DNA of 64,000 bases from an uncultured delta proteobacterium (GCA_963729685.1 CAVSOX010000018.1:273944-337943), one strand, 5' to 3'; shown: positions 7,105-64,000, numbered from the stretch's first letter. The notes: generated from the letters alone by a model not told the origin. Numbers and translations are program-made.

Positions 7105-7932
7105 TCATTTGTGGCACCAAATCTTCACCGCAGAGATTACTAATATCGCCGCGAGGAGGGGAAGAAGCACGGGGGTAGGAATAATACCGAGCAGACGCCC
7201 CCCCACATATGCGCCACCCAAAGAACCCACGGCCATGGTCACTATGAACCGTCGTCCCGTGCGGATCACCGCAAAACTGCTGTCCCGACTGTAGCGCGTA
7301 AAGGCGGTGATCATAGTGGGTAGGCTCACAGCCAGCGAGATACTGCCCGCAAGCTTCAAGTCTGTACCAAACAACAACATGACCGTCGGGATAAGCAACT
7401 CCCCGCCTGCAACGCCCAATAATGCCGCGACCACGCCGATACCTACTCCGGCGCCCACGCCAACCAATGTTAATAACCAGCCATGAAACAATGGTGCACT
7501 CCCCGCGCTCAAGCCGTGTCCCCATAGGAGAACGGCCGCGATGCCGATCAGGAGAACGGCGATAACCCGGTAGAGTCTTTGAGACCTGAGCCGTATAGCC
7601 CAGGTCGCGCCCAACCATGCTCCAATGAGACTGCCCGACAAGAGGGTGACAAGCACATCATAGCGTTGTAGCACGCTTGAGAAGGGGACGGTGGCGGCAC
7701 GAAAAGGAAGGGCAGAGGCTACAACAACCAGACTCATGGCCTTGTTGAGCATCACCGCTTCGAGTGCTCCGAAACCAAAGACCCCTATAAGCAATGGAAG
7801 GCGAAACTCAGCCCCTCCGAGACCGATGAGGCCACCGAGGATTCCTATGACGGCGCCACTGCTAAATACGGCTAAAGGGCTACGGTGGGCCCTTTTACCT
7901 TGGTTTTTTGATGGACTCCGGCGTGAGGACAC
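7105..7932 (-). CDS. TSUP-family (TauE/SafE) membrane permease
   Basis: 275 aa, multi-TM; repeated GGLIGLGGAEFRLPLL / LLGVAGGELLIPT motifs; GTG start preceded by AGGAGA. Confidence 0.85.
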   Translation of the reverse strand: MSSRRSPSKNQGKRAHRSPLAVFSSGAVIGILGGLIGLGGAEFRLPLLIGVFGFGALEAVMLNKAMSLVVVASALPFRAATVPFSSVLQRYDVLVTLLSGSLIGAWLGATWAIRLRSQRLYRVIAVLLIGIAAVLLWGHGLSAGSAPLFHGWLLTLVGVGAGVGIGVVAALLGVAGGELLIPTVMLLFGTDLKLAGSISLAVSLPTMITAFTRYSRDSSFAVIRTGRRFIVTMAVGSLGGAYVGGRLLGIIPTPVLLPLLAAILVISAVKIWCHK

Positions 7933-9677: not shown

Positions 9678-10724
9678 ATGAAAGACGGGATGAACCGGAG
9701 GGATTTTTTGAAAACGACCGTCGGCGCCGGGACCGTGCTGATGGCAGGAGGCATGATGGGCGAGGCAAAGAAGGCTTATGGCGCGGTGAAGATGCCGGAA
9801 GTCGACAGGGTGGAGATTACCATCATCACGGACAACTACTATGACGCGCTCAGGCCGGATGCGCGGGTGACAAAGAGGTTCCGCACCCAGCCGGGCAAAT
9901 GGATGCACGCCGAGCACGGCCTGTCCTACTTCATCGAAACGGCGTCGAACAACAAAACGAGCGGGTTCATGTTCGACTACGGCCTGGACAGCCAGGGCGT
10001 GAAAAGGAATATGGACGTCCTCGGCATCGACGTGGGAAAGGCGGAAGGCTTCGGGCTGAGCCACGGCCACTTCGACCACTGGGGCGCGTTCACCCAGATG
10101 CTGGCCATGAACCGGGCAAAGATAAAGAAAGGGACACCCTTGTACCTGGGCGAGGAGGCTTTCGCAAGGAGATACTCCCTGAGGCCGGGCACGACGGAAA
10201 GGCTGGATATCGGCCAACTGAGCAGGGCCGATATAGAGGCGTCCGGCCTGGTGCGGATCGTCGAGGTCAAGAGCCCTACCGAAGTGATGCCGGGGGGCTA
10301 CTTTTCGGGGTATGTGGAACGGGTGACCGAGTATGAGAAGCTGCCGCCCGTACTCCTCGTGAAGCAGGGCGATGCGGTCGTGGCCGATTCATTCCCGGGT
10401 GAGCAGGCCATGGCATTCAACCTGAAAGGGAAAGGGCTGGTCGTCGTATCCGGATGCGCCCACAGGGGCATCGTCAATACCGTGAAACACGTGCAGAAGA
10501 TGGCGGGGATCGAGAGGGTGTACGCGGTCATGGGCGGCTTCCACCTGGTCAATGCAAAGCCGGAGGTCATCGAGAGGACCGTGGCCGACCTGAAGGCCAT
10601 CAACCCGGAATTCATCGTCCCGGCCCACTGCACGGGTTTTGAAGCGACCGTTGCCTTCTCGAAGGCCATGCCGGGACAATTTATCCTGAACACGGCGGGG
10701 ACGAGATACACGTTCTCGGCATGA
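9678..10724 (+). CDS. Tat-exported MBL-fold metallo-hydrolase (COG1237-like)
   Basis: 348 aa; twin-arginine signal MNRRDFLKTTVGAG; GLSHGHFDHWG (HxHxDH); SGCAHRG. Confidence 0.85.
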   Translation: MKDGMNRRDFLKTTVGAGTVLMAGGMMGEAKKAYGAVKMPEVDRVEITIITDNYYDALRPDARVTKRFRTQPGKWMHAEHGLSYFIETASNNKTSGFMFDYGLDSQGVKRNMDVLGIDVGKAEGFGLSHGHFDHWGAFTQMLAMNRAKIKKGTPLYLGEEAFARRYSLRPGTTERLDIGQLSRADIEASGLVRIVEVKSPTEVMPGGYFSGYVERVTEYEKLPPVLLVKQGDAVVADSFPGEQAMAFNLKGKGLVVVSGCAHRGIVNTVKHVQKMAGIERVYAVMGGFHLVNAKPEVIERTVADLKAINPEFIVPAHCTGFEATVAFSKAMPGQFILNTAGTRYTFSA

Positions 10725-10800: not shown

Positions 10801-12376
10801 TTGAGGCTCGGCACAAAGCTCACGCTGTATCTCTCCCTTATCATCATCCTTGTGCTTTCCGGATACGGGTATCTCGATATTCTCTCCCGCCGGGACATCC
10901 TCGTGAGAAAGACGAAGGCGGAAGTGAGAAGCACCGGTCGCACCCTCGGTGTATCCCTCGAGAAGATCTCCCTGCCCGAAGAGCAAGAGTATGTCCAGGG
11001 TCTCATCGATGCGGTGAGCGAATACGAGAGGACCCTCGGCGTCATCGTCTACTATGAGAGAGGGCATCGCATCTTTCATTCGAACCTTTTAAAGGAGGGG
11101 ATCGAGCCCTCTCTCGACGCGATCAGAAGATCGATGCGAGAGGACCTTCCGCACGAGCAGTTTGGAGTCTACAAAAAAGTTCCTATATTTTCTTACATAT
11201 TCCCGCTTAAAGACGGGACGGGGAAGGCTATCGGCGGTGTCGCCATTCTCCAGCGGACGTCTTTCATGGAGGGAGAGATCGGGAAAGCGGAATGGAGCAT
11301 CGTCATCGCGATCCTCGTGCTGATCGGCGGGACCGTGGTTTTGGTCCTCGCGGGCACGAGAAGATGGGTGAGTCAGCCCATCTCCAGGCTGAGAGAGGGG
11401 ATCACGCATATGGCGCAAGGGGACCTCGACACCAGGATCGCGTTCAAGGGTCGCGATGAGCCTCTCCGAATTGGCGCATTCCTTTAACCGGATGGCGGCC
11501 GATCTGAAAATAGCCCGGGAACGGATCATCCGCGACGCGGAAGGCCGGCTGGAATTGGAGAGCGGTCTCCGGCAGTCCGAGAAGCTGGCCACCGTCGGTC
11601 AATTGGCTTCAGGACTGGCCCATGAGATCGGGACGCCCCTTAACATACTCTTGGGAAGGACGGAATTGATCAAGAGAAGGCTGGAAGACAGGGAGTCGAT
11701 TCAAAGGAATCTGGAGATCATCGACAACCAGATCGAGAGGATCACGAAGATCATCCAGCAGCTCCTCGGGTTCGTCAGAAAGAAGAAGCCCGAGCAAAAG
11801 GTGCTCGATATCGGCGCCGTTCTGGAGACGACCCTCGACCTCCTCGACTACCGGATCGAGAAGCAAAAGCTTGGGGTGGTGAAAGACTTCGAGGACGATC
11901 TGCCCGCCGTGCTGGGAGATCCGGATTTGCTGCAGCAGGTCTTCCTGAACCTGATCCTCAATGCGATCGAATCGATGCCCGAAGGGGGGACGCTCCGCCT
12001 CCGCACCTCGTCCGCCCGTGTTTCCAGGGGTGTCCTTCCTGAAAGCGAGAGACGGTATATCGAGGTACGGGTGGAGGACACGGGCGCGGGCATGGCCGGC
12101 GACGTCGTCCAACACATCTTCAAGGCCTTTTATACGACGAAGACGACAGGGACGGGACTCGGGCTCATGGTCACCCAGGGCATTGTCCAGGACCATGACG
12201 GATGGATCGATGTCGAGAGCGAGGCAGGAAAGGGATCGGTCTTCAAGGTCTACCTGCCGCTTTTTGCGGAACGGGTGATACCGGGTGTCGCATTCGAAGG
12301 TCCATCGAGGCGGCGACGAGGAGCCGACGAAGGCGTTTGCCGCCCCCGCGCGGAGGCTGGGCACCCGGCTATGTAG
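10801..12376 (+). CDS. Membrane sensor histidine kinase (HAMP + HisKA + HATPase), split by an apparent 1-nt frameshift near 11461
   Basis: 10801..11487 holds TM segments and the HAMP start [32 protein letters not shown]. 11456..12376 continues with [15 protein letters not shown].., H-box [14 protein letters not shown] and the N/G1/G2 boxes. Removing one C at 11461-11462 joins the two frames. Confidence 0.85.
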
Positions 12377-12437: not shown

Positions 12438-13787
12438 ATGGACGAGACGTATAAGATACTGGTAATCGATGACGACGTGGACATGTGTGAGCTGCTCTCC
12501 GACGTGCTCAAAGGCGAGGGATGGTCCGTCATGAGCATAAGCGACAGCCTGGAAGCCTCCAGGGTCCTGAGAAAGGAGGAGTTCGACGTCATCATCACCG
12601 ATCTCAAGATGAAAGGCTTGAAAGGTCTCGACCTCCTGGAGGAGGCCCACAAAGTGGCACCCCTCACGCCCGTGATCATTATCACGGCCTTCGGGACCAT
12701 CGAATCCGCCATCAAGGCGATGAAGATGGGCGCCTACGACTATATCACCAAGCCCTTCCGAACGGATGAGATCGTGCTGACCGTGAAGAAGGCCCTGGAG
12801 ATGCGCCTGTTAAAGAAAGAGGTCGTACGGTTGAAAAAAGAGGTGGAGTCGAGGTACCACTTCCACCACCTGATCGGCAAAAGCCCCTCGATGCAGAAGA
12901 TCTACGACCTCATTGAAAGGATCAGCGGAAGCTCCTACAACGTCCTCATCACCGGGGAAAGCGGGACAGGCAAGGAGCTGGTTGCGCGGGCTGCCCACTA
13001 TTCCGGCTCCAGAAAGGGGGGTCCGTTCGTGGCGGTCAATTGTGCGGCCATCCCGGAGACGCTGCTCGAAAGTGAGCTGTTCGGCTATAAAAAGGGCGCC
13101 TTCACCGACGCGAAAACGGACAAGTTGGGGTTGCTGTTCCAGGCCGCGGGAGGAACGGTCTTCCTCGACGAGATTACGGAGATGCCGCCCGTTTTGCAGG
13201 CCAAATTGCTTCGGGTGATCGAAGAGAGGGAAGTCCGGCCCCTGGGAGGCACGACTCCTTATCCTCTCGACGTGAGGATCATCTCCTCATCGAATCGCGA
13301 GATGAAAGAGGTGATCCGGCAGGGGCGGTTCCGTGAAGACCTGTACTACCGGCTGAAGGTCATCGACATCGAATTGCCGCCCCTCCGCGAGAGGAGAGAG
13401 GATATCCCCCTCCTGGTCGAACATTTTATCGCGAGATTTGGCCGGGAGCCGAAGAAGAGGGTTTCGGGCGTTTCGGAAGAGGCCCTCAAGGCGCTGATAA
13501 GTTACGCATGGCCGGGGAACGTGCGGGAGCTGGAAAACGTCATTCAACGGGCAATCACCCTGTGCCGGCACGAGGTGATCCTGCCGGAGGATTTGCCCGC
13601 CGCCATCACCCAGGCGCCGAAGGACGACCTTTTTGAGAAGGGCATCAGGGAACACTACACGATGGAGCAGGTGGAGAAGGAGTACGTCCGCAGGGTCCTC
13701 GTCGAAGTCGGGGGCAACAAGTCAAAGGCGGCCCAGATACTCGGCTTCGATCGAAAGACGTTGTATCGAAAGCTTGAGGAGTTGTAG
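12438..13787 (+). CDS. Sigma-54-dependent response regulator (NtrC family)
   Basis: 449 aa; receiver ILVIDDD..DVIITDLKMKG; AAA+ GESGTGKELVARAAH; GAFTDA; ESELFG; C-terminal Fis-type HTH. Confidence 0.93.
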   Translation: MDETYKILVIDDDVDMCELLSDVLKGEGWSVMSISDSLEASRVLRKEEFDVIITDLKMKGLKGLDLLEEAHKVAPLTPVIIITAFGTIESAIKAMKMGAYDYITKPFRTDEIVLTVKKALEMRLLKKEVVRLKKEVESRYHFHHLIGKSPSMQKIYDLIERISGSSYNVLITGESGTGKELVARAAHYSGSRKGGPFVAVNCAAIPETLLESELFGYKKGAFTDAKTDKLGLLFQAAGGTVFLDEITEMPPVLQAKLLRVIEEREVRPLGGTTPYPLDVRIISSSNREMKEVIRQGRFREDLYYRLKVIDIELPPLRERREDIPLLVEHFIARFGREPKKRVSGVSEEALKALISYAWPGNVRELENVIQRAITLCRHEVILPEDLPAAITQAPKDDLFEKGIREHYTMEQVEKEYVRRVLVEVGGNKSKAAQILGFDRKTLYRKLEEL

Positions 13788-16736: not shown

Positions 16737-17534
16737 CTATATCTTGGGATGCCTCGTCTTCGGCGTGAAGTGACATCCGCCGCAGTCCATCAAACCCCTT
16801 GTGTTCTCAAGCACGCCACCCTGGTCATGGCAACTCCGGCACGTCTGTTCCGACGCGGGAATCGCATACGCCGCCTTGAAGACGCCTGCCGCATTATCAT
16901 TCAGCATTTGGGCCGTGTGCCGCGCGACGGAAGCCGAGATCCAGGCGCACCGCTCGGCACGCTCCTTTGAAAACGATTTGACCTTCGACACCTTGCACCA
17001 GTTGGTGACGGAGACGTGGCAGAGCGGGGAGCGGGAGACAGATGTGACGATCTGGAACTTAGGATTCTTCGGCTTGTAGTCGGGCAGTTGCGCTTGCTCG
17101 TACCAGTTGAAAAGCTCCCTGATAAGCGCGAAGGCTTTCGCCTTTTTCGCCGGTTCTGCGCCGCCTGCGGCAAGGAAGATGGCCATTGCCGCGCCGTTCA
17201 GCGCGCCGCACAGCGTGGCGATGCCGGCAACGCCCCCCTCCCCGAAGACCATCATCGCGCTGGGAAAGGCGGCCCAAGGCCCACCCACGTCTTTGCGCAG
17301 CCCTCCAACGATCCCTTCAAAAGCGCCATAGCAGCAAGCGCCCGTGTAGTAACCTTCGTAGCCTCTCTCGGCAGCCGCGTCCAAATCCAGCTTTTTGTAA
17401 GGCCATGGCAATTGCGCCGCCCCTGATTGCAATTCCGCAGCAATTCCGTTCTTCAGGCCGGCAACCCCTCCAATGCCCAGGCCCAAAGCCAACCCTCCCA
17501 CACCTCTCAACAAATCTCTTCTCGACATTCTCAT
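16737..17534 (-). CDS. Tat-signal C_GCAxxG_C_C-family protein with C-terminal dihaem c domain (split-Soret cytochrome c-like)
   Basis: GGGAG SD then ATG 17534: MRMSRRDLLRGVGGLALG (Tat signal); ..CCYGAFEG.., ..LCGALNGAAM..; two CxxCH motifs (CRSCH, CGGCH) near the C-terminus. The ORF-track start 17618 is probably too far upstream. Confidence 0.75.
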   Translation of the reverse strand: MRMSRRDLLRGVGGLALGLGIGGVAGLKNGIAAELQSGAAQLPWPYKKLDLDAAAERGYEGYYTGACCYGAFEGIVGGLRKDVGGPWAAFPSAMMVFGEGGVAGIATLCGALNGAAMAIFLAAGGAEPAKKAKAFALIRELFNWYEQAQLPDYKPKNPKFQIVTSVSRSPLCHVSVTNWCKVSKVKSFSKERAERCAWISASVARHTAQMLNDNAAGVFKAAYAIPASEQTCRSCHDQGGVLENTRGLMDCGGCHFTPKTRHPKI

Positions 17535-17968
17535 AGCTAATCTCCCTGTTTGCGAAAATCGGTCACAAAGTGTCTTGTCCGACAGTTGCCCATTGTAACA
17601 TGCAACACTGCTCCACACGAGACAAATCTAGCATTCCAGGAAGCAGTGCTCGACGCTCTACATCGTCCTATCGTCCTTATTTTTCTCACAAAATGTAAAC
17701 GATGCCTTTCGTCGCTCCTGGTTGTCATGCCTCCTTGTCACCCCTGGTTGTCGCCCCTCCTTGTCGCTTTGACGGGAGAGGGGAAAAGAGAGAGAATCTT
17801 GTTAGGCCGGGCAATGATTCTGATAGGTCCTCAACGGATGACATAGCCCGGCCCGCTTCAGCCGGTCTCACAGCTCCCGTAAACCGGCCCGCTCTTTGAC
17901 AACTCAAGCCGACAACCGTGGCCTTAGAAGGGTCCTCTTTCCGATTCGCGTTTTCTTTTTCATTTTCA

Positions 17969-17986
17969 CCCCCCCCCCCCCCCCCC
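17969..17986 (+). repeat. Homopolymeric C18 tract
   Basis: 18 consecutive C in the 845-bp intergenic region between the divergent cytochrome and response-regulator genes. Confidence 0.95.
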
Positions 17987-17991
17987 GAAAC

Positions 17992-18014
17992 CGTGCACTT
18001 TCGTGCACTTTCGT
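17992..18014 (+). repeat. Tandem 10-mer CGTGCACTTT x2.3 (two GTGCAC palindromes 10 bp apart)
   Basis: Read directly from the sequence, 5 nt after the C18 tract. Confidence 0.9.
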
Positions 18015-18244
18015 AAACCCCATTCTAGAAATGCCTTGCAAGAGAAAGGAATCGGGAAAGGAGTGCCGATACGGTTAGTGAAGAATCCGTGCTAAAAAAG
18101 GGTAAAAGGAGGGTAAAACGCAGGAAAAAGATGGCAAAAGGGACCTTTTTTGTGGGTTTCCGGAGCCTGGTGTTCACCCCGGGTGACGGCCCTTAAGTTA
18201 CCGCTTATGCCCGCAAGCCCCACGCCCTTCTCTCGTGCCCTATT

Positions 18245-18263
18245 ATGCCACATGGTGTGGCAT
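18245..18263. promoter_or_regulatory. Candidate enhancer-binding-protein site (palindrome ATGCCACA-TGG-TGTGGCAT)
   Basis: Perfect 8+3+8 dyad about 100 bp upstream of the -24/-12 element at 18348. Confidence 0.4.
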
Positions 18264-18347
18264 TATTCCCCACTTGATCCCTGCCTGCATGCCGGGGTGA
18301 TACTTTAAGTCACCGGGAACATTGATGAAACTCGATCTTTCGTCGGA

Positions 18348-18363
18348 TGGCGCCGCTCTTGCA
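18348..18363 (+). promoter_or_regulatory. Sigma-54 (-24/-12) promoter candidate
   Basis: TGGCGC-CGCTC-TTGCA fits TGGCAC-N5-TTGCW with exact GG/GC spacing. Caveat: the predicted TSS is only ~6 nt before ATG 18380. Confidence 0.45.
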
Positions 18364-18379
18364 TCGGTAAGCTCCCGAA

Positions 18380-18805
18380 ATGGGAGTCCTTGAAAATAGA
18401 CATACCCCTCAAATTCTTATCGTCGAGGATGATGAGGAGATGCGATCACTGCTCAAGGAATTTCTCGAGGAGGAAGGATTCGAGACCGAATGCGCGCGCA
18501 ACGGCTCCGATGCGCTTCGTGAGATAGTCAAAAAGCCCTTCGACCTTATCGTGACCGATATCGAGATGCCCGGCCTGACGGGACTCGACATCCTTCCGGA
18601 GATCAAGAAACTCCGGCCGGCGGCTTCCATCATCGTGATGACCTCCTTTGCAACGGAGGAGATGTATCGCAGATCGCTGGAAAAAGGGGCCAACGGCTAT
18701 CTGGAAAAACCGATCCACATAAAGAAATTGAAAGCATTGATCTATGAGCTGCTCTCTATAAGACAAGAAACGAAGGGCGCTCGCGCCTCGCCGGAATCCG
18801 GGTAG
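18380..18805 (+). CDS. Single-domain response regulator (CheY-like receiver)
   Basis: 141 aa; QILIVEDDEEMRSLL..DLIVTDIEMPGLTGLD..IIVMTSF..GANGYLEKP. Confidence 0.9.
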   Translation: MGVLENRHTPQILIVEDDEEMRSLLKEFLEEEGFETECARNGSDALREIVKKPFDLIVTDIEMPGLTGLDILPEIKKLRPAASIIVMTSFATEEMYRRSLEKGANGYLEKPIHIKKLKALIYELLSIRQETKGARASPESG

Positions 18806-18905
18806 CCGGCTTGCGGCGGGGCAACGGCGCGGGAGGCGGCTGACGGTGTGGCGAGAGGCGAGAGGAAAGGGCAAGCAAGAAAAATAAGGCATACAAGGGG
18901 GACAT

Positions 18906-19436
18906 ATGCGTACGGGAAGAATTTTTGCGATCGGCGTTCTGAGTCTATTCCTTGGAGTTTTGGGCTGCACACAGGGACAGAAAGCGGAGGGTCCCAAGCA
19001 GGAGCAGGTCCAGAAGAACCTGGTCCCGCCAAAGGCCGAGACCGCGGGACCCAATTTTTCCGTGGTGCTGAGCGACCTCAAAGTGACCGCGACAATAGAT
19101 AGCGGTTCCAAAGAGATCGTCGAAACACCAAAGCTCAGCGGAAACATCAAGATAACCAACAAGTCGGCCGATATCCTGGATATCCAGGGGATTACCCTCG
19201 AATACCTGGACAACGCGGGGAAGCCTATCCCGTTTAGCTCCGGGGAGAAGATTTCGAAGGTCTCTTCCTACTGGAAGGCCATCAAGCCGGGAGAAGATTT
19301 CGAAGGCTCCATAGACGCCACCATCCCGAGGGCGGCGGTGAAAGAAAAGGTTCTCGGAAAGATAGAGATCAGCGCGGTCTACGTGCCTTCTCCCCTTAAA
19401 CGCGAGACGTTCACCATACCTGAAAAGGTCGAGTAG
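18906..19436 (+). CDS. Hypothetical lipoprotein
   Basis: 176 aa; MRTGRIFAIGVLSLFLGVLGC (lipobox L-G-C). Confidence 0.7.
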   Translation: MRTGRIFAIGVLSLFLGVLGCTQGQKAEGPKQEQVQKNLVPPKAETAGPNFSVVLSDLKVTATIDSGSKEIVETPKLSGNIKITNKSADILDIQGITLEYLDNAGKPIPFSSGEKISKVSSYWKAIKPGEDFEGSIDATIPRAAVKEKVLGKIEISAVYVPSPLKRETFTIPEKVE

Positions 19437-19441
19437 TCCGG

Positions 19442-19525
19442 GAAGAGTGAAAGGCAGTGACGAGTGACGAATTCAACGCAATAGGTTTCTTTTTCACTCG
19501 GCACTCGGCACTCGTCACTCGTCAC
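19442..19525. repeat. Heptamer-mosaic intergenic repeat, locus A
   Basis: Left arm ..GTGACGAGTGACGA; AT-rich centre ..GCAATAGGTTTCTTTTT; right arm CACTCGG CACTCGG CACTCGT CACTCGT CAC (complement of GTGMCGA units). Confidence 0.85.
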
Positions 19526-19551
19526 TTGAGGCGGGGGTCGGAGGCGAGGCG

Positions 19552-20469
19552 GTGAACATCTTTTTACCTATCGCGCAGATGAGTCTCAGCATCCCGGTGA
19601 TAATCGCCGTCGGCGGGGTGGTAGGGCTGCTGTCCGGGCTGTTTGGCGTCGGCGGCGGCTTTCTGCTCACGCCGCTCTTGATGTTCCTGGGCATATCGCC
19701 CGCGGTGGCGGCGGCGTCCGGCTCCGCGGGGATCGTCGCCGGATCGGCGACCGGAACGCTGGAGCATTCGCGGGGCAGCACGGTGGACTACAAGATGGGC
19801 TTCTGGCTCTTTGTAGGCGGCTCCGTGGGGAGCGTCTCGGGCGTCGAGATCATCCACTGGCTCAACCGTTTCGGTCCTGCCAACTATGTCATCCGGGTCC
19901 TCTACCTGGTCATGCTCGGCGCCATAGGGAGCATCATGCTGATCGACTCGGCCCGGACGTGGCGAAGCGGCGCCTATATGTCGGAGCGGAGGTTCGAGCC
20001 CGTCCGCACCCGCAGATGGGTTGACTCTCTGCCCTTCCAGGTGCACTTCCCGACGTCGGATATCAAGGTCTCCTTCCTGCTCCCTGCCGCCTTCGGCGCT
20101 CTGGCCGGCGTCCTTGCGGCGATGATGGGTGTGGGCGGCGGCTTTATCATGATCCCGCTCATGCTCTATGTGCTGCGCATGCGGATCCACGTTGCGGCGG
20201 GAACGAGCCTGTTCCAGATACTCTGTACGTGCATGCTCGTCACCGTGCTCCAGTGCGGGCAAAACCATACGGTGGACTTCGTGCTCGCCTTCCTGCTCGC
20301 CATGGGCTCGATGGCCGGGGCGGTGGTCGGGGCGAGACTGGGGCGGCGCCTGCGGGCGGATCAGCTCAAGGTCCTGCTCGCTATTATCATCCTCGTGGTG
20401 GCCTGCCAGGTAGGCATCGATCTCTTCAAGACGCCCACGACCTTCCTTTCCCACGTGGCGGGAGAATGA
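19552..20469 (+). CDS. TSUP-family (TauE/SafE) membrane permease
   Basis: 305 aa; MNIFLPIAQMSLSIPVIIAVGGVVGLLSGLFGVGGGFLLTPLL.. and second repeat MGVGGGFIMIPLMLYV. Its stop overlaps the next start (ATGA at 20466-20469). Confidence 0.9.
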   Translation: MNIFLPIAQMSLSIPVIIAVGGVVGLLSGLFGVGGGFLLTPLLMFLGISPAVAAASGSAGIVAGSATGTLEHSRGSTVDYKMGFWLFVGGSVGSVSGVEIIHWLNRFGPANYVIRVLYLVMLGAIGSIMLIDSARTWRSGAYMSERRFEPVRTRRWVDSLPFQVHFPTSDIKVSFLLPAAFGALAGVLAAMMGVGGGFIMIPLMLYVLRMRIHVAAGTSLFQILCTCMLVTVLQCGQNHTVDFVLAFLLAMGSMAGAVVGARLGRRLRADQLKVLLAIIILVVACQVGIDLFKTPTTFLSHVAGE

Positions 20470-23400
20470 GGCGCATGATGTCCCGGCGAAGCGGCAGCCG
20501 CGTGCTCGGAGTCGCAAGCCTCGCGCTGGCGCTCGGGGCTCGTGTCGCCCGTGTGCGCCGGCACGTTCTCCTCCGTGGACCCTGCCTCCGTGTCGGCGGG
20601 GACATTCTATAGCGGCGCCACCCTTCACGTTCGCGGAAGCATAGGCGCCGGGTCCCAGGTCGTGATCCGGATAAAGGGGGCGTCGGAGCACCATGTGTTC
20701 AACCGCCGCGGTAAGATCGGCGGCTTCATGTGGGGGGGGATCGAACACGTGACCTTCCGGCATGCACCGACCTTTTACGGTGTATACACCTCCTCGGACC
20801 TCGCGGCGACGGCCCCTCCGGCCGTGCGCAGCCAACTCCAGCTTGGCTACGAGCCGCTCGAGACACAGATGGACGTCGAGGGAACGAAGGCGGACAAGCA
20901 CCTGATGATTACCTATTTCGTGCAGTTCAAGGAGACCGAGGGCCTGTACCGCATCGCGCCGGGAGCGGTGCGCCTTACCGACCCGCGGCGCGGGCGGCGC
21001 GGGTTCGATGTCGCGGTGCCGCTCTCCGCGAACACGCCCCCGGGAGACCTTGAGGTGGCCGTCTTCGAGCTCGCCGGGGGCGCCGTTGTCCACAATGAGA
21101 CAACGACGGTGCGGCTCCTGAGGGTCGGCCTGCCGGCTTACCTCTTTCGCGTGACCCACGAGGACGGCGTGCTCTTCGGTCTGGTCGCGCTCTTCATCTT
21201 AGTGACGAGCGGGCTCGTGATAGACTTCATCGTGTGCAGGGGGGACCCGGCTAAGCGCGGCCCAGCCCTGGAGGCCCTTGTCGACCTGCACCGGTTGATC
21301 GCCGAGGGCCTGTTCGGCGTGCGCAAGAGGACCAGATCCTCCGAAACTATTGCGAATCTGCACGGGAAGTACGAGCATTTCCGCGCCCTCCTCGCCCTCA
21401 ACAACGAGCTTCTCGAGCTCCTGGCAGAGCTGGAGGAGGAGTCTTCGTGGTCTACGCTGCGCCATCCGAGGGTGCGCATGGGGATCCGCGCCCTTTTCGA
21501 CGGGACCGAGGATATGGTCCAGGTGCTGAACCGGCTCACCGGGAATCGCTACTTCGATCTCACGAACGTCGTCGCCGGCGTGCGGTCGAGTGTCCTGACC
21601 TACCTCGCGAAGGTGTCCGAGCAGAAAGACCCTTGCCTGACCCTGCAAATGGAGGAGATCAACTCCAGGACCGCGGGCCAGGCGGGCGGCAAAGCCGTCA
21701 ACCTGGCCCGCATCGAGGAAGACCTCGGAATGCGCGTACCCAGGTCCTTCGTGGTCACGACCGAGGCCTACCGGGAGTTCATGGAAGTCGACGGGCTCGC
21801 GAGTAAGGTGCGGAGCGTCCTTGCGCCCGCACGCCTGGACGCGCCTGAGGATTTTCGGCGACGCTGCGAGCTGGCGCAGGACCTGGTTCGGGAGACCCGC
21901 GTGCCGCCGGCCGTGGTGGAGGCCATCTGCCTCGCGTACCGCTCCTCGTCCATTCCTCTCGCGGAAGGGGTCGCGGTGAGGTCCAGCGCGGCCGGGGAGG
22001 ACAGCCAATTGTCATTTGCCGGCCAGTTCGAGACGGTCCTCAACGTGAACGAATCGGACGTGGCGGAGGCATGGAAGCGGGTGGTCGTCAGCCGGTTTTC
22101 TCCCGGGGCCGTTTTTTACCGGCGGGCCGCGGGCCTGGCAGAAGTGGACACACCCATGGCAGTGCTCGTGCAGCGTATGGTGACCGCCCGGGCATCGGGC
22201 GTGCTCTTCACGCGCCGGCCCGAGGACCCGAAGGCGGCCGAGCTTCTCATCACCGCTGTCCGGGGGCTGGGCGCCCAGGCGTCGGCCGGCATCGCCATTG
22301 CCGACGAGTTTGTCGTGTCGCGAAGCCGTCCGTGGCGCATCCTGGACAGGCGCATCGCTCACAAGTTGGTGCGGCTCGCCGGCAAGGCGGGCGGCGGCCT
22401 TGCCCTGGTCCCGGAAGCCGCCGGGGAGCAGGATGCGGCGGCTATCACCGACGACGCGATCCTACGGCTCGTGGAGGCAGCCGTTGCCATTGAGCGCTAT
22501 TTCGGCCGTAGCCAGGACATCGAGTGGGCCATCGACCCCGAAGGAGAGATCTTCATTCTGCAAGCCCGGCCGCTCCGGGTCGAAAAGCCGGAGACGGCGC
22601 GCGGGGACCTGCCGCGTGATGTGGCGCCGCTCCTGCATGGGGGCGATCCGGTCTGGCTCGGGCGAGCAGTTGGTCCCGTCCACGTAGCGAGAAACGCGGA
22701 GGAAGAGAACCGCACCCCCCACGGCGCGCTGCTGGTGGTCCCCCAGCTCCTGCCCGATTGCGTACGGCTCCTGCCGAGGGTCTGTGGCGTGCTGGTGGAG
22801 CGGGGGACGGTGACGGGCCACGCGGCCTCCATCCTGCGGGAGTTCCGGGTGCCGAGTCTCTTCGGTGTTGCGGGCGCGGTCGCTACATTGACGTCCGGTC
22901 AGGTAGTGAGCCTCGACGTCGCGAGCCGCAGTGTCTTCGAGGGGGTCCTCTGGCCGAAGCTGCGGGGCCACCTTCCCATCACGCTCCTCGGCCGGCGCAC
23001 TACGGGTCTCCCGGACGTGCTGGCCGGCAAGCTCACGAAACTGAGCGGGAGCAGCTTCATGGGCACCTGGGCGTGCCAGTCCCTGCACGACGTCATCCGT
23101 TTTGCCCACGAGATGGCTATTCAATCGATGTTCGAGATAGGAGACCGGCTTCTCGACTCGCCCATCGGCGGGGTCAAGCAGCTCGATTCCCCTTCGCTGA
23201 TACAGATGTATCTCGTGGACCTCGGGGGTGGGCTCCTTCCGGAGGCAGGGTCCGGGCGGTCCGTGAAACCCGAGGATATCGCCTCGGTCCCCCTGAAGGG
23301 ACTCTGGCGGGGCCTGAGTGACCCGGAGTTCGACCGGGAACAGGATATCACGCTTCGATCGTTCGGGTCCGCAATCGGCAGGGGTCTGACAGCGGCGGGA

Positions 23401-23883
23401 CCGCGAGAGATGGGGGCGCCCAATTATGCGTGCGTCACGGAGAGCTACCTCAACCTGAACTCCCGGCAGGCATACCACTTCACGATCGTCGACGCCTTCC
23501 TTTCCGACAACCAGAATAACAATCACCTCAGCCTCCGCATGAAAGGCGGCGGCGGCGCCCTCTGGCAGCGCAACCTCCGGGCGGAATTCGTCGCTGAGGT
23601 GCTGCGCATGCACCACTTTACCGTGAACGTCGCGGGCGATCTGGTGAACGGCTGGGTTCGTGGGCTCGACCTGACGACGGGCGTCGAAAAGCTCACGACA
23701 ATCGGCCACCTGCTCCGTTTCTCGGCGCTCCTCGACATATCCATCACGAGCGAAGCCCACATGAAAAGCTACGTTGCCGCTTTTGTCGAGGCTGAAAGAC
23801 GGCGCCTGGCCGGGGATAGCGAGCCCGGGCAGCGCGTAGCAACAGTCTCAAAAATGGTGTCGACAACCGATCACCCCGTTTGA
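20466..23883 (+). CDS. Fusion protein: TIGR02186 (Alph_Pro_TM)-like exported domain + TM helix + PEP-utilising enzyme (PPDK_N ATP-grasp and phosphohistidine swivel) + uncharacterised C-terminal domain. Apparent 1-nt frameshift in the signal-peptide region (GGGG at 20535-20538)
   Basis: ATG 20466 gives MRRMMSRRSGSRVLGVASLALALG, then a frame change into the track ORF 20542..23883: ..VVIRIKGASEHHVFNRRGKIGGFMWGG.. and ..LSANTPPGDLEVAVFEL.. (TIGR02186-like). TM helix GLVALFILVTSGLVIDFIV. GGKAVNLARIEE..DIEWAIDPEGEIFILQARPL (PPDK_N). ERGTVTGHAASILREFRVPS (mobile His domain). Confidence 0.8.
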
Positions 23884-23953
23884 GACCGTTATTAACACAG
23901 ACTTCAGGCTTACGGGACTGCCAACTTAATAAAGGATCGGGTATAATCAATCC

Positions 23954-24683
23954 ATGAGGATGATGGCGCCCATAGTAGTTTTCCTCCTGTCCCTCGTCTT
24001 CGTCCTGCCGTGCCGTGCCCAGGAGAGGCAGGTGCTGTTCCGGGAAGCGTTCACGGGCCTGGAAAACTGGCGTCCCCTCTTCTTTCCCAAGGTGCATAAG
24101 CACACGACTTACGCCATCGATGGGAAAGACGGGGAGCGCTGCCTGAAGGCCGAAAGCGACGGGTCGGCGTCCGCCCTTGTCTATAAGGGGGAATTCAACG
24201 CCTATGGGTTTCCCTGGGTGAGGTGGCGCTGGAAGGTGGAGAACGTCTACCGAAAGGGCGACCCGGAAAAGAGGTCCGGCGACGATTACCCTCTCGCGCG
24301 TCCAGATCGTCTTCAAGTACGATCCTGAAAAGGCGGGGAGGCTCAAGAGGATGGAATGGGGTCTCGCGAGGCGGATATACGGAGAGTATCCGCCTGAAAG
24401 CACCTTGAGCTACGTCTGGGCAAGCCGGGATGACCAAAGAACGATGATGGCAAGCCCTTTTTCGACCAGCGTCAGGCTGATTGCCCTTGAAAAGGGCGGC
24501 AGGAAGTGCGGTGCCTGGCAGGAGGAAGAGGTCAATATCGTGAATGACTACAAAGCGGCCTTCGGGTCGGACCCTCCGGCCATAGCGTCCATAGTCATCA
24601 TGAACGATTCCGACGACACGGGAGAAAGGTGCGTGTCGTACGTGAAGTTTATCGAGGTTTTCGGCACGCACCCGCCGAAGTGA
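23954..24683 (+). CDS. DUF3047-family secreted protein, split by an apparent frameshift near 24296-24301
   Basis: 23954..24328 holds the signal peptide, ..FPWVRWRWKVENV..SGDDYPLA. 24351..24683 extended upstream reads VQIVFKYDPEKAG..LSYVWAS..DYKAAFGSDPPAIASIVIMNDSDDTGE. The junction lies in a CGCGCG run. Confidence 0.75.
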
Positions 24684-24712
24684 GGTAAAGTCCTATCCGG
24701 CTTGGCGCCCTT

Positions 24713-24865
24713 TCAATATCCCAGCCGATGCAGCGCCGGCACAACCGCGGCGGCGAACAGACAGTAGCAGCCGAAATAATGCCATTTCCCCCGGTCGAGC
24801 CAGCGAGTCAGCCATCGCAGCGCCAGAAGCCCCGCGAGGAAGCTTAAACCCAGGCCGCGGCCCAT
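24713..24865 (-). pseudogene. Possible C-terminal fragment of undecaprenyl-diphosphatase (UppP/BacA)-like gene
   Basis: MGRGLGLSFLAGLLALRWLTRWLDRGKWHYFGCYCLFAAAVV.. resembles the last ~45 aa of UppP (F..G.LA.R.L.R.L.R....F..YR). No upstream body is present. Confidence 0.3.
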
Positions 24866-24872
24866 GACCTGG

Positions 24873-25358
24873 CTACGGGCGCCGGAGGCTCCGCAACCGG
24901 GGGATAAACCGTCCCGTCCGTTCGGCGTATGCACGGTATTGCTCGTGAAAACGCTCCGACATCATGTGCTCCTCGCGGACGACGAGCCGGCCCCACACCG
25001 GATGCAGCGACACGGCCCAAAGGAGAAGGACCCAGGAATTGAGGTAGATCGCAACGCCGGGGCACAGGAAAGTGATCCAGGCGGCATACATCGGATGGCG
25101 AAACCATCTGAACGGACCGGTTGTGCATAGTTGGTCTTTCACCCACCAGTTCCGGAGGGCGTAGGCCGTCCAAAAATAGAGGACCAATCCGGCGCAGGCC
25201 GAGAGGGCGCCCAAACCTTCCATCAGCGACGGGTACTTCAGTATCTCCGGATGACCCAGGCCGCGGTCTGCCGAAACAGCCGCTGCCAGGAGGATGAGGC
25301 TGATGCCCAGGCCGATCGGGCCGACGCCGAAAAGCTTTTGCAGCGCACTCCGGTCCAT
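24873..25358 (-). CDS. Isoprenylcysteine carboxyl methyltransferase (ICMT/PEMT) family membrane protein
   Basis: ATG 25358: MDRSALQKLFGVGPIGLG..; TTGPFRWFRHPMYAAWI; EEHMMSERFHEQYRAYAERTGRFIP. The ORF-track start 25583 translates repeat DNA. Confidence 0.8.
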   Translation of the reverse strand: MDRSALQKLFGVGPIGLGISLILLAAAVSADRGLGHPEILKYPSLMEGLGALSACAGLVLYFWTAYALRNWWVKDQLCTTGPFRWFRHPMYAAWITFLCPGVAIYLNSWVLLLWAVSLHPVWGRLVVREEHMMSERFHEQYRAYAERTGRFIPRLRSLRRP

Positions 25359-28354: not shown

Positions 28355-28883
28355 GGTGGTGCTCCTTTGCTTTTGCGTCCATCGGTTCTTCCACTCATCA
28401 CCTTCTCGACGATGAATTCGGCGAGCCGCCCTATGTCATCCCTGTGCAGGACGGGCACGGGGGCGTCCATGGGCATGTCCGTGACAAGGGCGAGAAGGCT
28501 CCTGTGTCCTAAAGAGACGGGCGGCTCCTGGTTGCGGACGTTGTAGACCTCGATCCTCGGCACGTCTTCCCTCTTGAACCCTTCAGTGATGACGAGGTCG
28601 ACGTCGTGCACATGGCGGGAGACCAGCTCGGCGAGACCGGGCTCCCCGTCGACGTCCTCGACCAGGGCGACCTTTCCCGGCGAGACGACCATGGCGAGTG
28701 CGGCCCCCGCCCTTTTGTGGCGGTAGCTGTCTTTTCCCTCCCGGTCCATCTCGAAATCATGGGGGTGGTGCTTTAAGGTGGCGACCCGGATGCCGCTGCC
28801 GTGAGATGCGGGATCAGCCTTTCTATGACGGTGGTCTTCCCGGTCCCTGATCTTCCGACGAAGGAGAGTATCGGTATCCGCAT
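28315..28883 (-). CDS. mobB: MobB (molybdopterin-guanine dinucleotide biosynthesis adapter), apparent frameshift near 28790-28797; in frame with and not separated by a stop from the upstream MoeA-like ORF
   Basis: MRIPILSFVGRSGTGKTTVIERLIPHLTAA (P-loop, frame of 28773..29813), then after a 1-nt shift GIRVATLKHHPHDFEMDREGKDSYRHKRAGA..VDLVITEGFK (frame of 28315..28749). Confidence 0.75.
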
Positions 28884-29813
28884 ACCCTCGGCAGCCTTGC
28901 TTTCCTCCTGGAAGGGCCGGCCGGCCATCCCCAGAAGCGCCCTTTTGACGAAAAGCTCGTAGAGGCTTTCCACCGCCTTTGGATTGCCGGGAAGGATGAA
29001 GAAGAGCTGAGGGCCTTTCCTGCCGAAGGCCATTGTCTTGCCCGGCTGGATAGGGGGGGAATCGAGAAGGAAGCGGAACCGCATGCGCCTTACCGCCTGT
29101 TTGGTCAGGTCCTTTTTCCCCTTCGCCGTGCCGCCCGTGAGGATGAACAACCGGGCGCCGGGGGACTCCCTCATGGCGCGCCGGATCTCTTCTTCATCGT
29201 CGTCCACGGTATGGAGACCCGCGATGCTGCCGCCGTCCCTCTGGACAAGGCCGGCCAGAAGAAATTTGTTGGAGTCGGTGCCGCCCCCTTTTTTCAGCTC
29301 GCTTCCTGTCGCGATGAGCGCCACCGCCGGTTTCCTGAAGACCCGCAAGGCCTCATGGCCGCCCAGGGCCAGCAGGCCCATTGCGGCCGGGCCGATGACA
29401 TCGCCCCGGTCTATCAGCCGCCGCCCTTTTTTCAGCCAGTCTCCCCTTGTCACGACTTTTCGCTCGTCCGCCTCGGTCTCCACCCTGATGGCGTCGGCTT
29501 TTTCAGCCACGTGCTCCCTGGCCGCGAACCTGGACCCGCGAGGGAAGCGGCCGCCCGTGGGGACAAAGACCGCTTCGCCTTCTTTGAGAGGTAAAGGGGT
29601 CTCGCCGAGGGGCTCGAGGGACCCCCGGGTGCGGAAATCCGTCCCGGCGCCCCTCACCGCATAACCGTCGAGGGCCGAGACGTCGAAGGGAGGCATGGGG
29701 CGGCGTGCGATCAGGGAGCGGGCACTGACGCGCCCCAGGGCATCGAGGAGGGGGATAGTCTCCTCCGACGGCCGCGGAATGTGGCGGTCGATGACGTCCA
29801 TAATGTTGGTCAT
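28884..29813 (-). CDS. moeA: MoeA-like molybdopterin molybdotransferase (domains I-III; no separate MoeA_C), reading straight into mobB
   Basis: ..PPFDVSALDGYAVR.., ..EGEAVFVPTGG.., ..VALIATGSEL.. DSNKFLLAGLV.., LFILTGGTAKGKKDL, PGKTMAFG, ILPGNP. Confidence 0.8.
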
Positions 29814-63653: not shown

Positions 63654-64000
63654 GTGATGAGAGAGACGGGTAAGACGGCACTGATCATTGGCGGCGGCCT
63701 GGCGGGAATGGAGGCGGCCCTGAGAATAGGGCAGGCGGGCTTTCACTCTGTCCTGATAGAAAAAGAGGCAGTGCTTGGCGGCACGGTCCTGAAGCTCAAG
63801 AGCAGCTTCCCCCGATGGGAGGACCCGCTCGATCTGGTGCATGAGAGGGTCGAGCAGGCCGAAACGCTGCTCCGGGGTCACCGTGATGACCGGGACGACG
63901 GTGGCCGGAAGCAGGCCCCGGCAAAATGGGTTTCTTGTCTCGTTAAGGGCCGGTAACGGCGGCGCCCGAGAGCTGGATATCGATGCCGTTGTGCTCGCGA
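63654..64000 (+). CDS. HdrA/QmoA-like FAD-dependent oxidoreductase, partial (runs off window); apparent frame change near 63855-63870
   Basis: ALIIGGGLAGMEAALRIGQAGFHSVLIEKEAVLGG (Rossmann GxGxxG). After ~63860 the protein-like reading (..GVTVMTGTTVAGSRPRQNGFLVSLRAGNGGARELDIDAVVLA) is in another frame. Confidence 0.7.

Follow-up and report, generated by a model that had tools for sequence, protein, structure and literature searches.

A described gene cluster similar to the locus analysed here is the nitrate cluster of Desulfovibrio vulgaris, which encodes the TauE protein DVU0251, DVU0250, the PtxB-like DVU0249, the kinase DVU0248 and the regulator DVU0247, followed by DVU0246 and DVU0245 (Korte et al. 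2014, PMC4001038). DVU0246 is a PPDK_N/PEP-utilizers protein of 744 amino acids (aa) with no TIM barrel among its listed domains, and DVU0245 is a phosphatase; the counterpart in D. alaskensis is Dde_0597-0605 (PMC4001038). Among the transposon mutants of this cluster in the two species, those hit in the permease gene, the regulator gene or the dikinase-like gene were all nitrate-resistant, and a leaky thiosulfate transporter was proposed by the authors (PMC4001038; PMC9723548). The locus of this study lies in a stretch of 64,000 nucleotides (nt) from an uncultured delta proteobacterium (GCA_963729685.1, CAVSOX010000018.1:273944-337943); the whole stretch is called the window, and positions are counted from its first letter. 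At 19552-23883, a TSUP (TauE) permease gene overlaps a gene whose product fuses a periplasmic PF09608 domain and a transmembrane (TM) helix to an enzyme resembling phosphoenolpyruvate (PEP) synthase.

TSUP proteins, for which no structure has been solved, are abundant candidate transporters (PMC5840216), and the uptake and regulation of sulfate and thiosulfate in anaerobes such as sulfate reducers are poorly known. In the literature searched, only PMC4001038 treated the nitrate-cluster genes functionally, while biofilm and transcriptomics studies mentioned single genes; no paper mentioned TIGR02186, Alph_Pro_TM or PF09608.

Rifampin phosphotransferase and PigC/RedH (PRK06241-type) resemble the fusion protein in combining an ATP-grasp and a swivel histidine with an acceptor domain that is not a TIM barrel. 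The acceptor domain of these enzymes sits between the ATP-grasp and a C-terminal swivel, unlike the order of ATP-grasp, swivel and putative acceptor in the window, and the acceptor domains have no detectable similarity. The ATP-grasp matched those of rifampin phosphotransferase and PigC/RedH at E = 1e-38 to 1e-53, and the rifampin-phosphotransferase-like models PRK06241 and NF041857 gave 182-230 bits against cut-offs of 883-999, over the ATP-grasp only. In plant starch, glucan water dikinase and the SEX4/LSF2 phosphatases pair a dikinase with dual-specificity phosphatases in a reversible phosphorylation cycle. Glucan water dikinase differs from the fusion protein in its domain order and glucan substrate, and has no transporter or response regulator beside it. 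VadK (Rv1127c) of Mycobacterium tuberculosis is an autophosphorylating regulatory kinase derived from PPDK that has lost its metabolic role (PMC13400623). Its likeness to the fusion protein consists in the shared PPDK domains; unlike the fusion protein, VadK is soluble and actinobacterial, and its partners are methylcitrate-cycle enzymes.

Domain architecture of the fusion protein

The permease gene and the domains of the fusion protein, with the evidence for each, are as follows:
19552-20469, plus strand: TSUP/TauE permease, 305 aa (Pfam TauE, 156 bits; several hydrophobic segments)
20581-21234, plus strand: PF09608 (Alph_Pro_TM) region, predicted periplasmic immunoglobulin (Ig)-like beta-sandwich containing a helical insert, together with the TM helix (Pfam; AlphaFold)
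21166-21237, plus strand: single TM helix, aa 209-232 (modelled helix; sole internal hydrophobic segment)
21304-21636, plus strand: cytoplasmic helical domain, aa ~255-365 (start of BLASTP alignments at aa 257-263)
21679-22596, plus strand: PPDK_N ATP-grasp, aa 380-685 (Pfam, 257 bits; aligns to solved PEP synthases)
22717-22923, plus strand: PEP-utilizers swivel domain, aa 726-794 (Pfam, 47 bits)
22936-23811, plus strand: C-terminal domain, ~290 aa (no Pfam or PDB match; conserved motifs)

The permease was multi-pass and matched TauE (PF01925) with 156 bits against a threshold of 32.6, over profile positions 1-236 of 237. An earlier note, made from the sequence alone, had described the permease gene as translationally coupled to the next gene, and the overlap of the two was borne out: the permease stop codon TGA (20467-20469) shares the sequence ATGA with the ATG of the fusion gene at 20466. 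The same overlap was kept in two related loci, L085 and L008. The domain order and topology given in the note also held.

The PF09608 match covered aa 14-231 (127.4 bits against a gathering threshold of 24.5, profile positions 8-225 of 227); like the other Pfam scores of the ORF, this lies well beyond chance. The AlphaFold model of this N-terminal region (pLDDT 87) showed mainly a beta-sandwich, into which a helical part is inserted, and then the TM helix. When the region was compared with the PDB by Foldseek, generic Ig-like folds only were returned, none at E <= 0.001. The assignment of this region to TIGR02186 stood in part. The model was matched at E = 9.2e-17, and several homologues have been named 'TIGR02186 family protein' by NCBI, but the score of 61.1 bits lay under the curated cut-off of 255.25. 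The repaired protein (see below) had two hydrophobic segments only, the signal peptide and the one TM helix; it thus has a periplasmic N-terminal domain and ~880 cytoplasmic residues. Like stand-alone PF09608/TIGR02186 proteins, it has a periplasmic domain of ~200 aa and a TM helix at the end of that module, with the TSUP gene directly 5'; a signal peptide is encoded as well, out of frame in this assembly and continuous in relatives. Unlike those proteins of ~270 aa, it continues for ~880 residues beyond the TM helix.

The best PDB matches of the fusion protein were PEP synthases. As in PEP synthase (PpsA) and pyruvate phosphate dikinase, an ATP-grasp is followed by a swivel domain, with the catalytic Lys, Arg, Glu, Gln, Arg and His conserved. 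K384, R480, E661, Q674 and R676 of the ATP-grasp, together with H760, were invariant in an alignment of 26 fused homologues. H760 (codon 22819-22821) is the predicted phospho-histidine; it lies within GTVTGHAASILREF and aligns to TSHAA of PEP synthase 8a8e. From these residues, ATP use and a phospho-histidine intermediate would be expected of the fusion enzyme. The differences from PEP synthase are the additional N-terminal periplasmic domain, TM helix and helical domain, and an unrelated domain of ~290 aa in place of the PEP/pyruvate TIM barrel. Scores were 267 bits against 739.75 for TIGR01418 and 271 against 598 for PRK06464, with the match ending at ~460 of 784-798. Because the TIM barrel is absent and the scores are under the cut-offs, the protein stands outside the PEP-synthase family. 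The note's designation as a phosphotransfer enzyme of PEP-synthase type is right for the ATP-grasp and swivel residues and fails at the curated PEP-synthase cut-offs. Its suggestion of PEP dependence is unlikely, since there is no PEP-binding domain and the catalytic residues of the ATP-grasp are all invariant.

The C-terminal domain carried the motifs C-x3-HD-x2-R-x2-HE, DLGGG, YxNLxxRxxYHF and NNHxxFRFxGG, with 16 residues invariant across phyla. When 30 family members were compared with Pfam at E <= 1, nothing was matched in this domain, including the TIM barrel PF02896. A profile of the domain matched no PDB sequence, and Foldseek comparison of its model with the PDB gave none at E <= 0.001. 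In the AlphaFold model, residues 80-290 (mostly pLDDT >85) formed antiparallel sheets with helices; as modelled, the domain does not have a TIM-barrel fold. Word-indexed searches of proteins, run separately with the C-terminal domain and with the PF09608 domain, returned fragments only.

Conservation of the fusion and the dikinase-like family

The same three Pfam domains were found at 1110-1150 aa in more than 110 clusters (90% identity) from several sources, and contigs 1-7 Mb in length encoded some of the fused proteins. An assembly chimera of two genes was rejected, as more than 110 independent clusters have the continuous architecture. Among species-representative genomes, true fusions occurred in metagenome-assembled genomes (MAGs) labelled Acidobacteriota, 'delta proteobacterium' and Anaeromyxobacter; the label Methylomirabilota was also found among fused homologues. 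At 50% identity, the fused proteins made up two of the top 150 clusters. The fusion is conserved but phylogenetically narrow. Databases already contain these sequences, but the names they bear there ('TIGR02186 family protein' or 'pyruvate, water dikinase') say little about them; neither the three-part system nor the C-terminal domain has been described.

Residues ~257-1082 aligned end to end with soluble proteins of 836 and 858 aa at 35-38% identity over ~830 aa. This alignment ran from the helical domain through ATP-grasp and swivel into the C-terminal domain, and the soluble proteins were encoded in the same kinds of loci. In an exhaustive HMMER search, the C-terminal domain was found in 944 clusters at 50% identity, mostly proteins of 820-880 aa in which it was again C-terminal. 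The helical domain, found by phmmer in 38 open reading frames (ORFs) of 32 loci, is homologous to the N-terminus of a subset of soluble dikinase-like proteins and is for that reason more than a linker. By sequence homology, the helical domain and the new C-terminal domain define a soluble family of predicted dikinase-like proteins of ~850 aa and are not features of the fusion only. The earlier reading of an uncharacterised C-terminal domain thus agrees with the lack of Pfam and PDB matches, but this domain, together with the supposed 'helical linker', is common to a large soluble family.

One branch of the family carried a C-terminal dual-specificity phosphatase (P0300/P0338, 1252 aa, Syntrophobacteraceae). 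This dikinase::phosphatase fusion is paralleled by the glucan water dikinase/SEX4/LSF2 cycle. In the Nitrospiraceae-type proteins P0265, P0233, P0251 and P0224, an extra concanavalin A (ConA)-like lectin or DUF1080-like domain followed the C-terminal domain. At 12488-15391 of L041, one of three tandem paralogues had the swivel and C-terminal domains with PPDK_N not detectable, and it may be a non-catalytic subunit.

Gene neighbourhoods

Gene neighbourhoods were surveyed in 84 loci. A PF09608 ORF lay directly 3' of a TSUP gene in 42 of 47 cases, in agreement with the pairing of TauE permeases with TIGR02186-type proteins that the earlier note had stated. Of the five exceptions, L004 had the order TSUP, dikinase, PF09608, and the others were artefacts of ORF calling or contig edges. 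The contig of L028 begins at the PF09608 gene, and no TSUP gene was visible there. The TSUP proteins of these pairs, that of the window among them, formed a strongly conserved subfamily.

TSUP, PF09608 and dikinase genes were consecutive in L013, L017, L032, L039, L040, L041, L049, L058, L077 and L080. Such split three-gene loci were found in Thermodesulfobacteriota, Zixibacteriota, Desulfovibrionaceae, Desulfofervidaceae, Desulfobulbaceae-type genomes and some Acidobacteriota MAGs. The nearest unfused relatives of the fused enzyme included that of L011, where the dikinase gene directly follows the PF09608 gene. Since the three genes are split but adjacent in other phyla, the fusion is a classic joining of adjacent, functionally linked genes, and the link between a permease module and a phosphotransferase drawn from the window alone was supported by the split versions. 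Although this is ordinary gene-fusion biology, the fusion is direct evidence that three uncharacterised components cooperate: a TSUP subfamily, an Ig-like single-pass partner and a dikinase-like family. Its value lies in tying these families together and in offering a testable mechanism for an unexplained phenotype.

The commonest upstream neighbour of dikinase genes was a small single-domain response regulator of ~120-130 aa (45 of 127 genes). Sixty-one small regulators lay within 700 nt of a dikinase, often at 0-6 nt, and 70 of 130 dikinase genes had a histidine kinase no more than 2.5 kb away. A locus could contain as many as four dikinase paralogues, each with its own regulator and histidine kinase. 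Genes of sat, aprBA or qmo adjoined TSUP-PF09608 pairs in L001, L003, L007, L013 and L034 (on the same strand in L003), and an H+-pyrophosphatase gene was adjacent in L002 and L009. Near members of the dikinase family, often no transporter gene was found. The locus of P0338 in a Syntrophobacteraceae MAG (L086, 2465-12759) starts with a YeeE-type sulfur transporter, TusA, a Se/S carrier and a PtxB-like binding protein, and continues with a sCache/HAMP/PAS histidine kinase, a response regulator and the dikinase::phosphatase. The dikinase module, being found with both TSUP and YeeE-type proteins, serves two unrelated transporter families.

Other recurrent neighbours were also recorded. A module of a Cytidylate_kin2 plus BON protein, a TSUP of ~360 aa and one or two dikinase-like genes, without PF09608, was present in L010, L014, L015, L020-L023, L026, L031 and L033 (for example L021, 5798-12424). 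As a speculation, the nucleoside monophosphate (NMP)-kinase-like protein of this module might recycle AMP made by the dikinase. A DUF202 membrane protein of ~510 aa followed tandem dikinase genes in 26 loci (for example L040 12529-14070, L049 12572-14110, L063 9081-10604 and L071 9014-10546). Universal stress proteins recurred in 13 and 10 loci (two ORF clusters). One recurrent neighbour 'family' was discarded, as it consisted of antisense ORFs of GC-rich dikinase genes.

The operon of the window

Two genes precede the permease gene in the apparent operon:
18380-18805, plus strand: single-domain response regulator, 141 aa (Pfam Response_reg, 107 bits; first gene of the apparent operon)
18906-19436, plus strand: predicted lipoprotein, 176 aa, N-terminus MRTGRIFAIGVLSLFLGVLGC (hydrophobic N-terminus with an L-G-C lipobox)

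The order regulator, lipoprotein, TSUP, fusion gene, all on the plus strand, was the same in L085 (the P0002 locus). The lipoprotein had no match in a Pfam scan. Its kinship with the ~200-aa proteins encoded 5' of TSUP in other phyla was considered and rejected, as there was no similarity.

Like the nitrate cluster, the window has a TauE permease, a single-domain regulator (18380-18805) and a TIM-less dikinase part (21304-23811) in one cluster. The dikinase of the nitrate cluster, unlike that of the window, is not membrane-anchored, and that cluster has a PtxB-like binding protein, a histidine kinase and a phosphatase, all absent from the window operon. The nitrate cluster shares with L086 the order binding protein, kinase, regulator, dikinase, phosphatase, and the dikinase of L086 has the same C-terminal domain as the fusion protein.

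Proposed function

We tentatively propose, at somewhat less than an even chance, that the fusion protein is a membrane-tethered regulatory kinase controlling a sulfur-oxyanion permease; the proposal draws on gene context and on the genetics of the related Desulfovibrio cluster. The regulator, the lipoprotein, the TSUP permease and the fusion protein would form one membrane complex. The TSUP protein would be an anion permease, probably for a sulfur oxyanion (thiosulfate, sulfate or sulfite); we infer this substrate from the sat/aprBA/qmo context of five loci and by analogy with the Desulfovibrio genetics. Its obligate single-pass partner would have an Ig-like periplasmic domain and a cytoplasmic tail extended into the PEP-synthase-like enzyme. 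ATP would be bound in the ATP-grasp, His760 on the swivel would be phosphorylated, and the phosphate would pass to an acceptor held by the C-terminal domain; the use of ATP and the phospho-histidine intermediate are predicted from the homologous families. Together with the single-domain response regulator (elsewhere also with a histidine kinase and a dual-specificity phosphatase), the kinase may switch the transporter on or off post-translationally, and the fusion would tether the kinase to its target permease through the TM helix of the partner. No conserved candidate phospho-acceptor was found in the central loop of the TSUP protein.

The earlier note had left open substrate phosphorylation or regulation. 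If the former were correct, the C-terminal domain would bind a small molecule imported by TSUP, and the reaction ATP + X + H2O -> AMP + Pi + X-P would couple uptake to activation, much like group translocation. In favour of this, enzyme and permease are physically tethered, the 16 invariant polar or charged residues of the C-terminal domain are active-site-like, and all dikinases characterised so far whose acceptor domain is not a TIM barrel phosphorylate a small molecule or a glucan (rifampin phosphotransferase, PigC/RedH). We nevertheless consider such metabolic trapping unlikely. One enzyme family occurs with both TSUP and YeeE, and often the surroundings of its genes yielded no transporter gene; as many as four paralogues in a locus, with their own regulators and histidine kinases, are unlike a catabolic enzyme; and some paralogues have no detectable ATP-grasp. 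To our knowledge, no phosphorylated sulfur-oxyanion intermediate exists. Of the two parts of the note's suggestion, regulation was thus favoured over substrate phosphorylation by the gene context, namely the regulators, the histidine kinases, the phosphatase fusions and the two transporter families. We prefer regulation because the module is attached to two unrelated transporter families, because of the two-component gene setting, the paralogue arrays and the protein-type phosphatase fusion, and because a single-domain regulator cannot act on transcription yet phenocopies the permease mutant.

The frequent response regulators would also fit a two-component sensor, in which the PF09608 domain, alone or with TSUP, senses an external anion and controls the cytoplasmic enzyme, whose phospho-histidine passes phosphate to the regulator, the ATP-grasp and swivel replacing a histidine kinase. 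The layout of periplasmic domain, TM helix, helical segment, ATP-binding domain and phospho-histidine mimics a sensor kinase. No neighbour of the enzyme is closer or more frequent than the response regulator, and the window's regulator keeps the canonical acidic pocket together with the phospho-acceptor Asp, the Thr and the Lys. The C-terminal domain is conserved among paralogues, which fits one common protein partner. The histidine kinase of the D. vulgaris cluster is a pseudogene, yet the regulator and the dikinase are both still needed for the phenotype (PMC4001038), and VadK has been reported as a histidine kinase derived from PPDK (PMC13400623). However, a classical histidine kinase also stands beside the regulator in most loci, the family consists mostly of soluble proteins without a sensor domain, and a Cys-based dual-specificity phosphatase would not be expected for phospho-Asp. 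We regard this sensor as quite improbable, more so than metabolic trapping. A broader form of the idea, which we hold to be about as doubtful as metabolic trapping, is that the ATP-grasp/swivel enzyme and its new C-terminal domain represent an overlooked second type of histidine phosphotransfer kinase, one that phosphorylates single-domain regulators or is gated by them; the fused form would then make TSUP and its Ig-like partner a sulfur-oxyanion transporter-receptor.

Several points weigh against a regulatory kinase acting on a sulfur-oxyanion permease. The many invariant Arg, His and Asp residues of the C-terminal domain would equally suit a small anionic substrate. In the scanned parts of the window there were no sat, apr or qmo genes, and between 17600 and 28000 no PtxB-like binding protein, adjacent histidine kinase or dual-specificity phosphatase was found. 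No PF09608 partner has been reported in the nitrate cluster. DVU0246 is likely a member of the dikinase-like family, an assignment that rests on synteny, length and listed InterPro domains. The phosphatase mutant of D. alaskensis was not opposite to the kinase mutant (PMC4001038). If the 5-nt deficit described below were real, the protein would be without a signal peptide in this organism.

If a regulatory kinase acting on or with response regulators is correct, it would be a new kinase class for bacterial signalling. The fusion also offers a lead to the mechanism behind the Desulfovibrio nitrate cluster, mutants of which withstand the nitrate applied in souring control.

In the scanned parts of the window, the 'QmoA' match at 63654 was only a generic FAD-binding start and was rejected, as was the ORF 9678-10724 as a PtxB-like binding protein.

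Frameshift in the signal peptide

The start of the fusion gene is interrupted as follows:
20466-20537, plus strand: true start of the fusion gene, coding for the initial 24 aa of the signal peptide in another frame than the remainder
20533-20538, plus strand: frameshift site (DNA alignment with L085; three-frame translations)

The ATG at 20466 opens MRRMMSRRSGSRVLGVASLALALG, a typical start of a signal peptide, in a frame that closes at 20612. The long ORF 20542-23883 lies in the next frame and gives 1113 aa from a GTG, or 1138 aa once repaired; the depositor's gene call (P0001) uses an internal GTG start and gives 1062 aa. A +1 shift at the G run 20535-20538 (GGGG) joins the signal peptide to the long ORF. 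In the DNA alignment, the window was 5 nt shorter than the locus of its closest relative (L085) exactly at 20533-20538. In the three closest relatives, P0002, P0363 and P0003, the signal peptide is continuous into the same mature sequence: P0002 (90% identical) reads through as ...SLALALGLGLMSPACAGTF... and P0363 (1129 aa, same 90% cluster) as ...SLAVALGFGLVSSACAGAF... Since the signal peptide of the relatives is continuous and the deficit is 5 nt, the frameshift that the earlier note had placed at 20535-20538 is real in this assembly. Programmed frameshifting was rejected, as the shift is not conserved in relatives.

The 5-nt deficit, which puts the signal peptide out of frame, and the depositor's internal start could indicate a dead gene, either by a genuine frameshift or as a chimeric long ORF. 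We consider this very unlikely. The remaining 1113 codons are intact and align end to end with relatives, and the GC content at third codon positions (GC3) of the long ORF is 0.82, typical of coding sequence here. A chimera is contradicted by the independent clusters with the same continuous architecture, including those on the 1-7 Mb contigs. Two further genes within 10 kb of the site are also frameshifted, a DUF3047 gene (~24300) and a HAMP histidine kinase gene (~11455), which points to assembly indels, with the three frameshifts (~11455, 20533-20538 and ~24300) falling within ~14 kb. Several related long contigs have Microflora-Danica-style names (MFD..., contig_N), suggesting long-read assemblies. 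From the two other frameshifted genes and the long-read appearance of the relatives' contigs, we think that the shift in the fusion gene stems from an assembly indel, perhaps added to a real difference of 6 nt in length.

The DUF3047 gene (23954-24683, plus strand), just 3' of the fusion gene, is split into the ORFs 23954-24328 and 24351-24683, which match Pfam profile positions 2-78 and 100-197, with the frameshift near CTCTCGCGCG. The HAMP histidine kinase gene (10801-12376, plus strand) is split within HAMP, after GRDE, into the ORFs 10801-11487 and 11456-12376 and is followed by a sigma-54 response regulator gene (12438-13787). This nearest histidine kinase is 6 kb away from the operon, and its pair is the sigma-54 regulator.

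Flanking region

Rfam, promoter and terminator scans over 17500-24900 gave nothing meaningful. The response-regulator gene is preceded by an intergenic stretch of 760 nt (17619-18379) without an Rfam match. It contains a run of 18 C at 17969-17986, immediately followed by the tandem repeat GTGCACTTTC GTGCACTTTC. A perfect palindrome, ATGCCACA-TGG-TGTGGCAT, lies ~110 nt 5' of the start codon of the regulator.

A second TauE-family gene (7105-7932, minus strand) had no PF09608 or dikinase partner nearby. Its strongest Pfam stretch covered profile positions 63-236, and its N-terminus may be divergent or miscalled. The MoeA-like ORF 28773-29813 (minus strand) ends in the first 25 residues of a MobB match and is either a shortened MoeA-MobB fusion or a further frameshift. 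The NrdD of the window belongs to a 90% cluster that includes Syntrophorhabdales MAGs, a hint of the lineage from which the window derives.

The segment 20001-24000, with the TSUP and fusion genes, had 65% GC and a GC3 of 0.82-0.85, compared with 56-59% GC in the flanking 2-kb windows. This high GC could reflect horizontal acquisition or merely codon bias; GC-rich stretches occur elsewhere in the window too.

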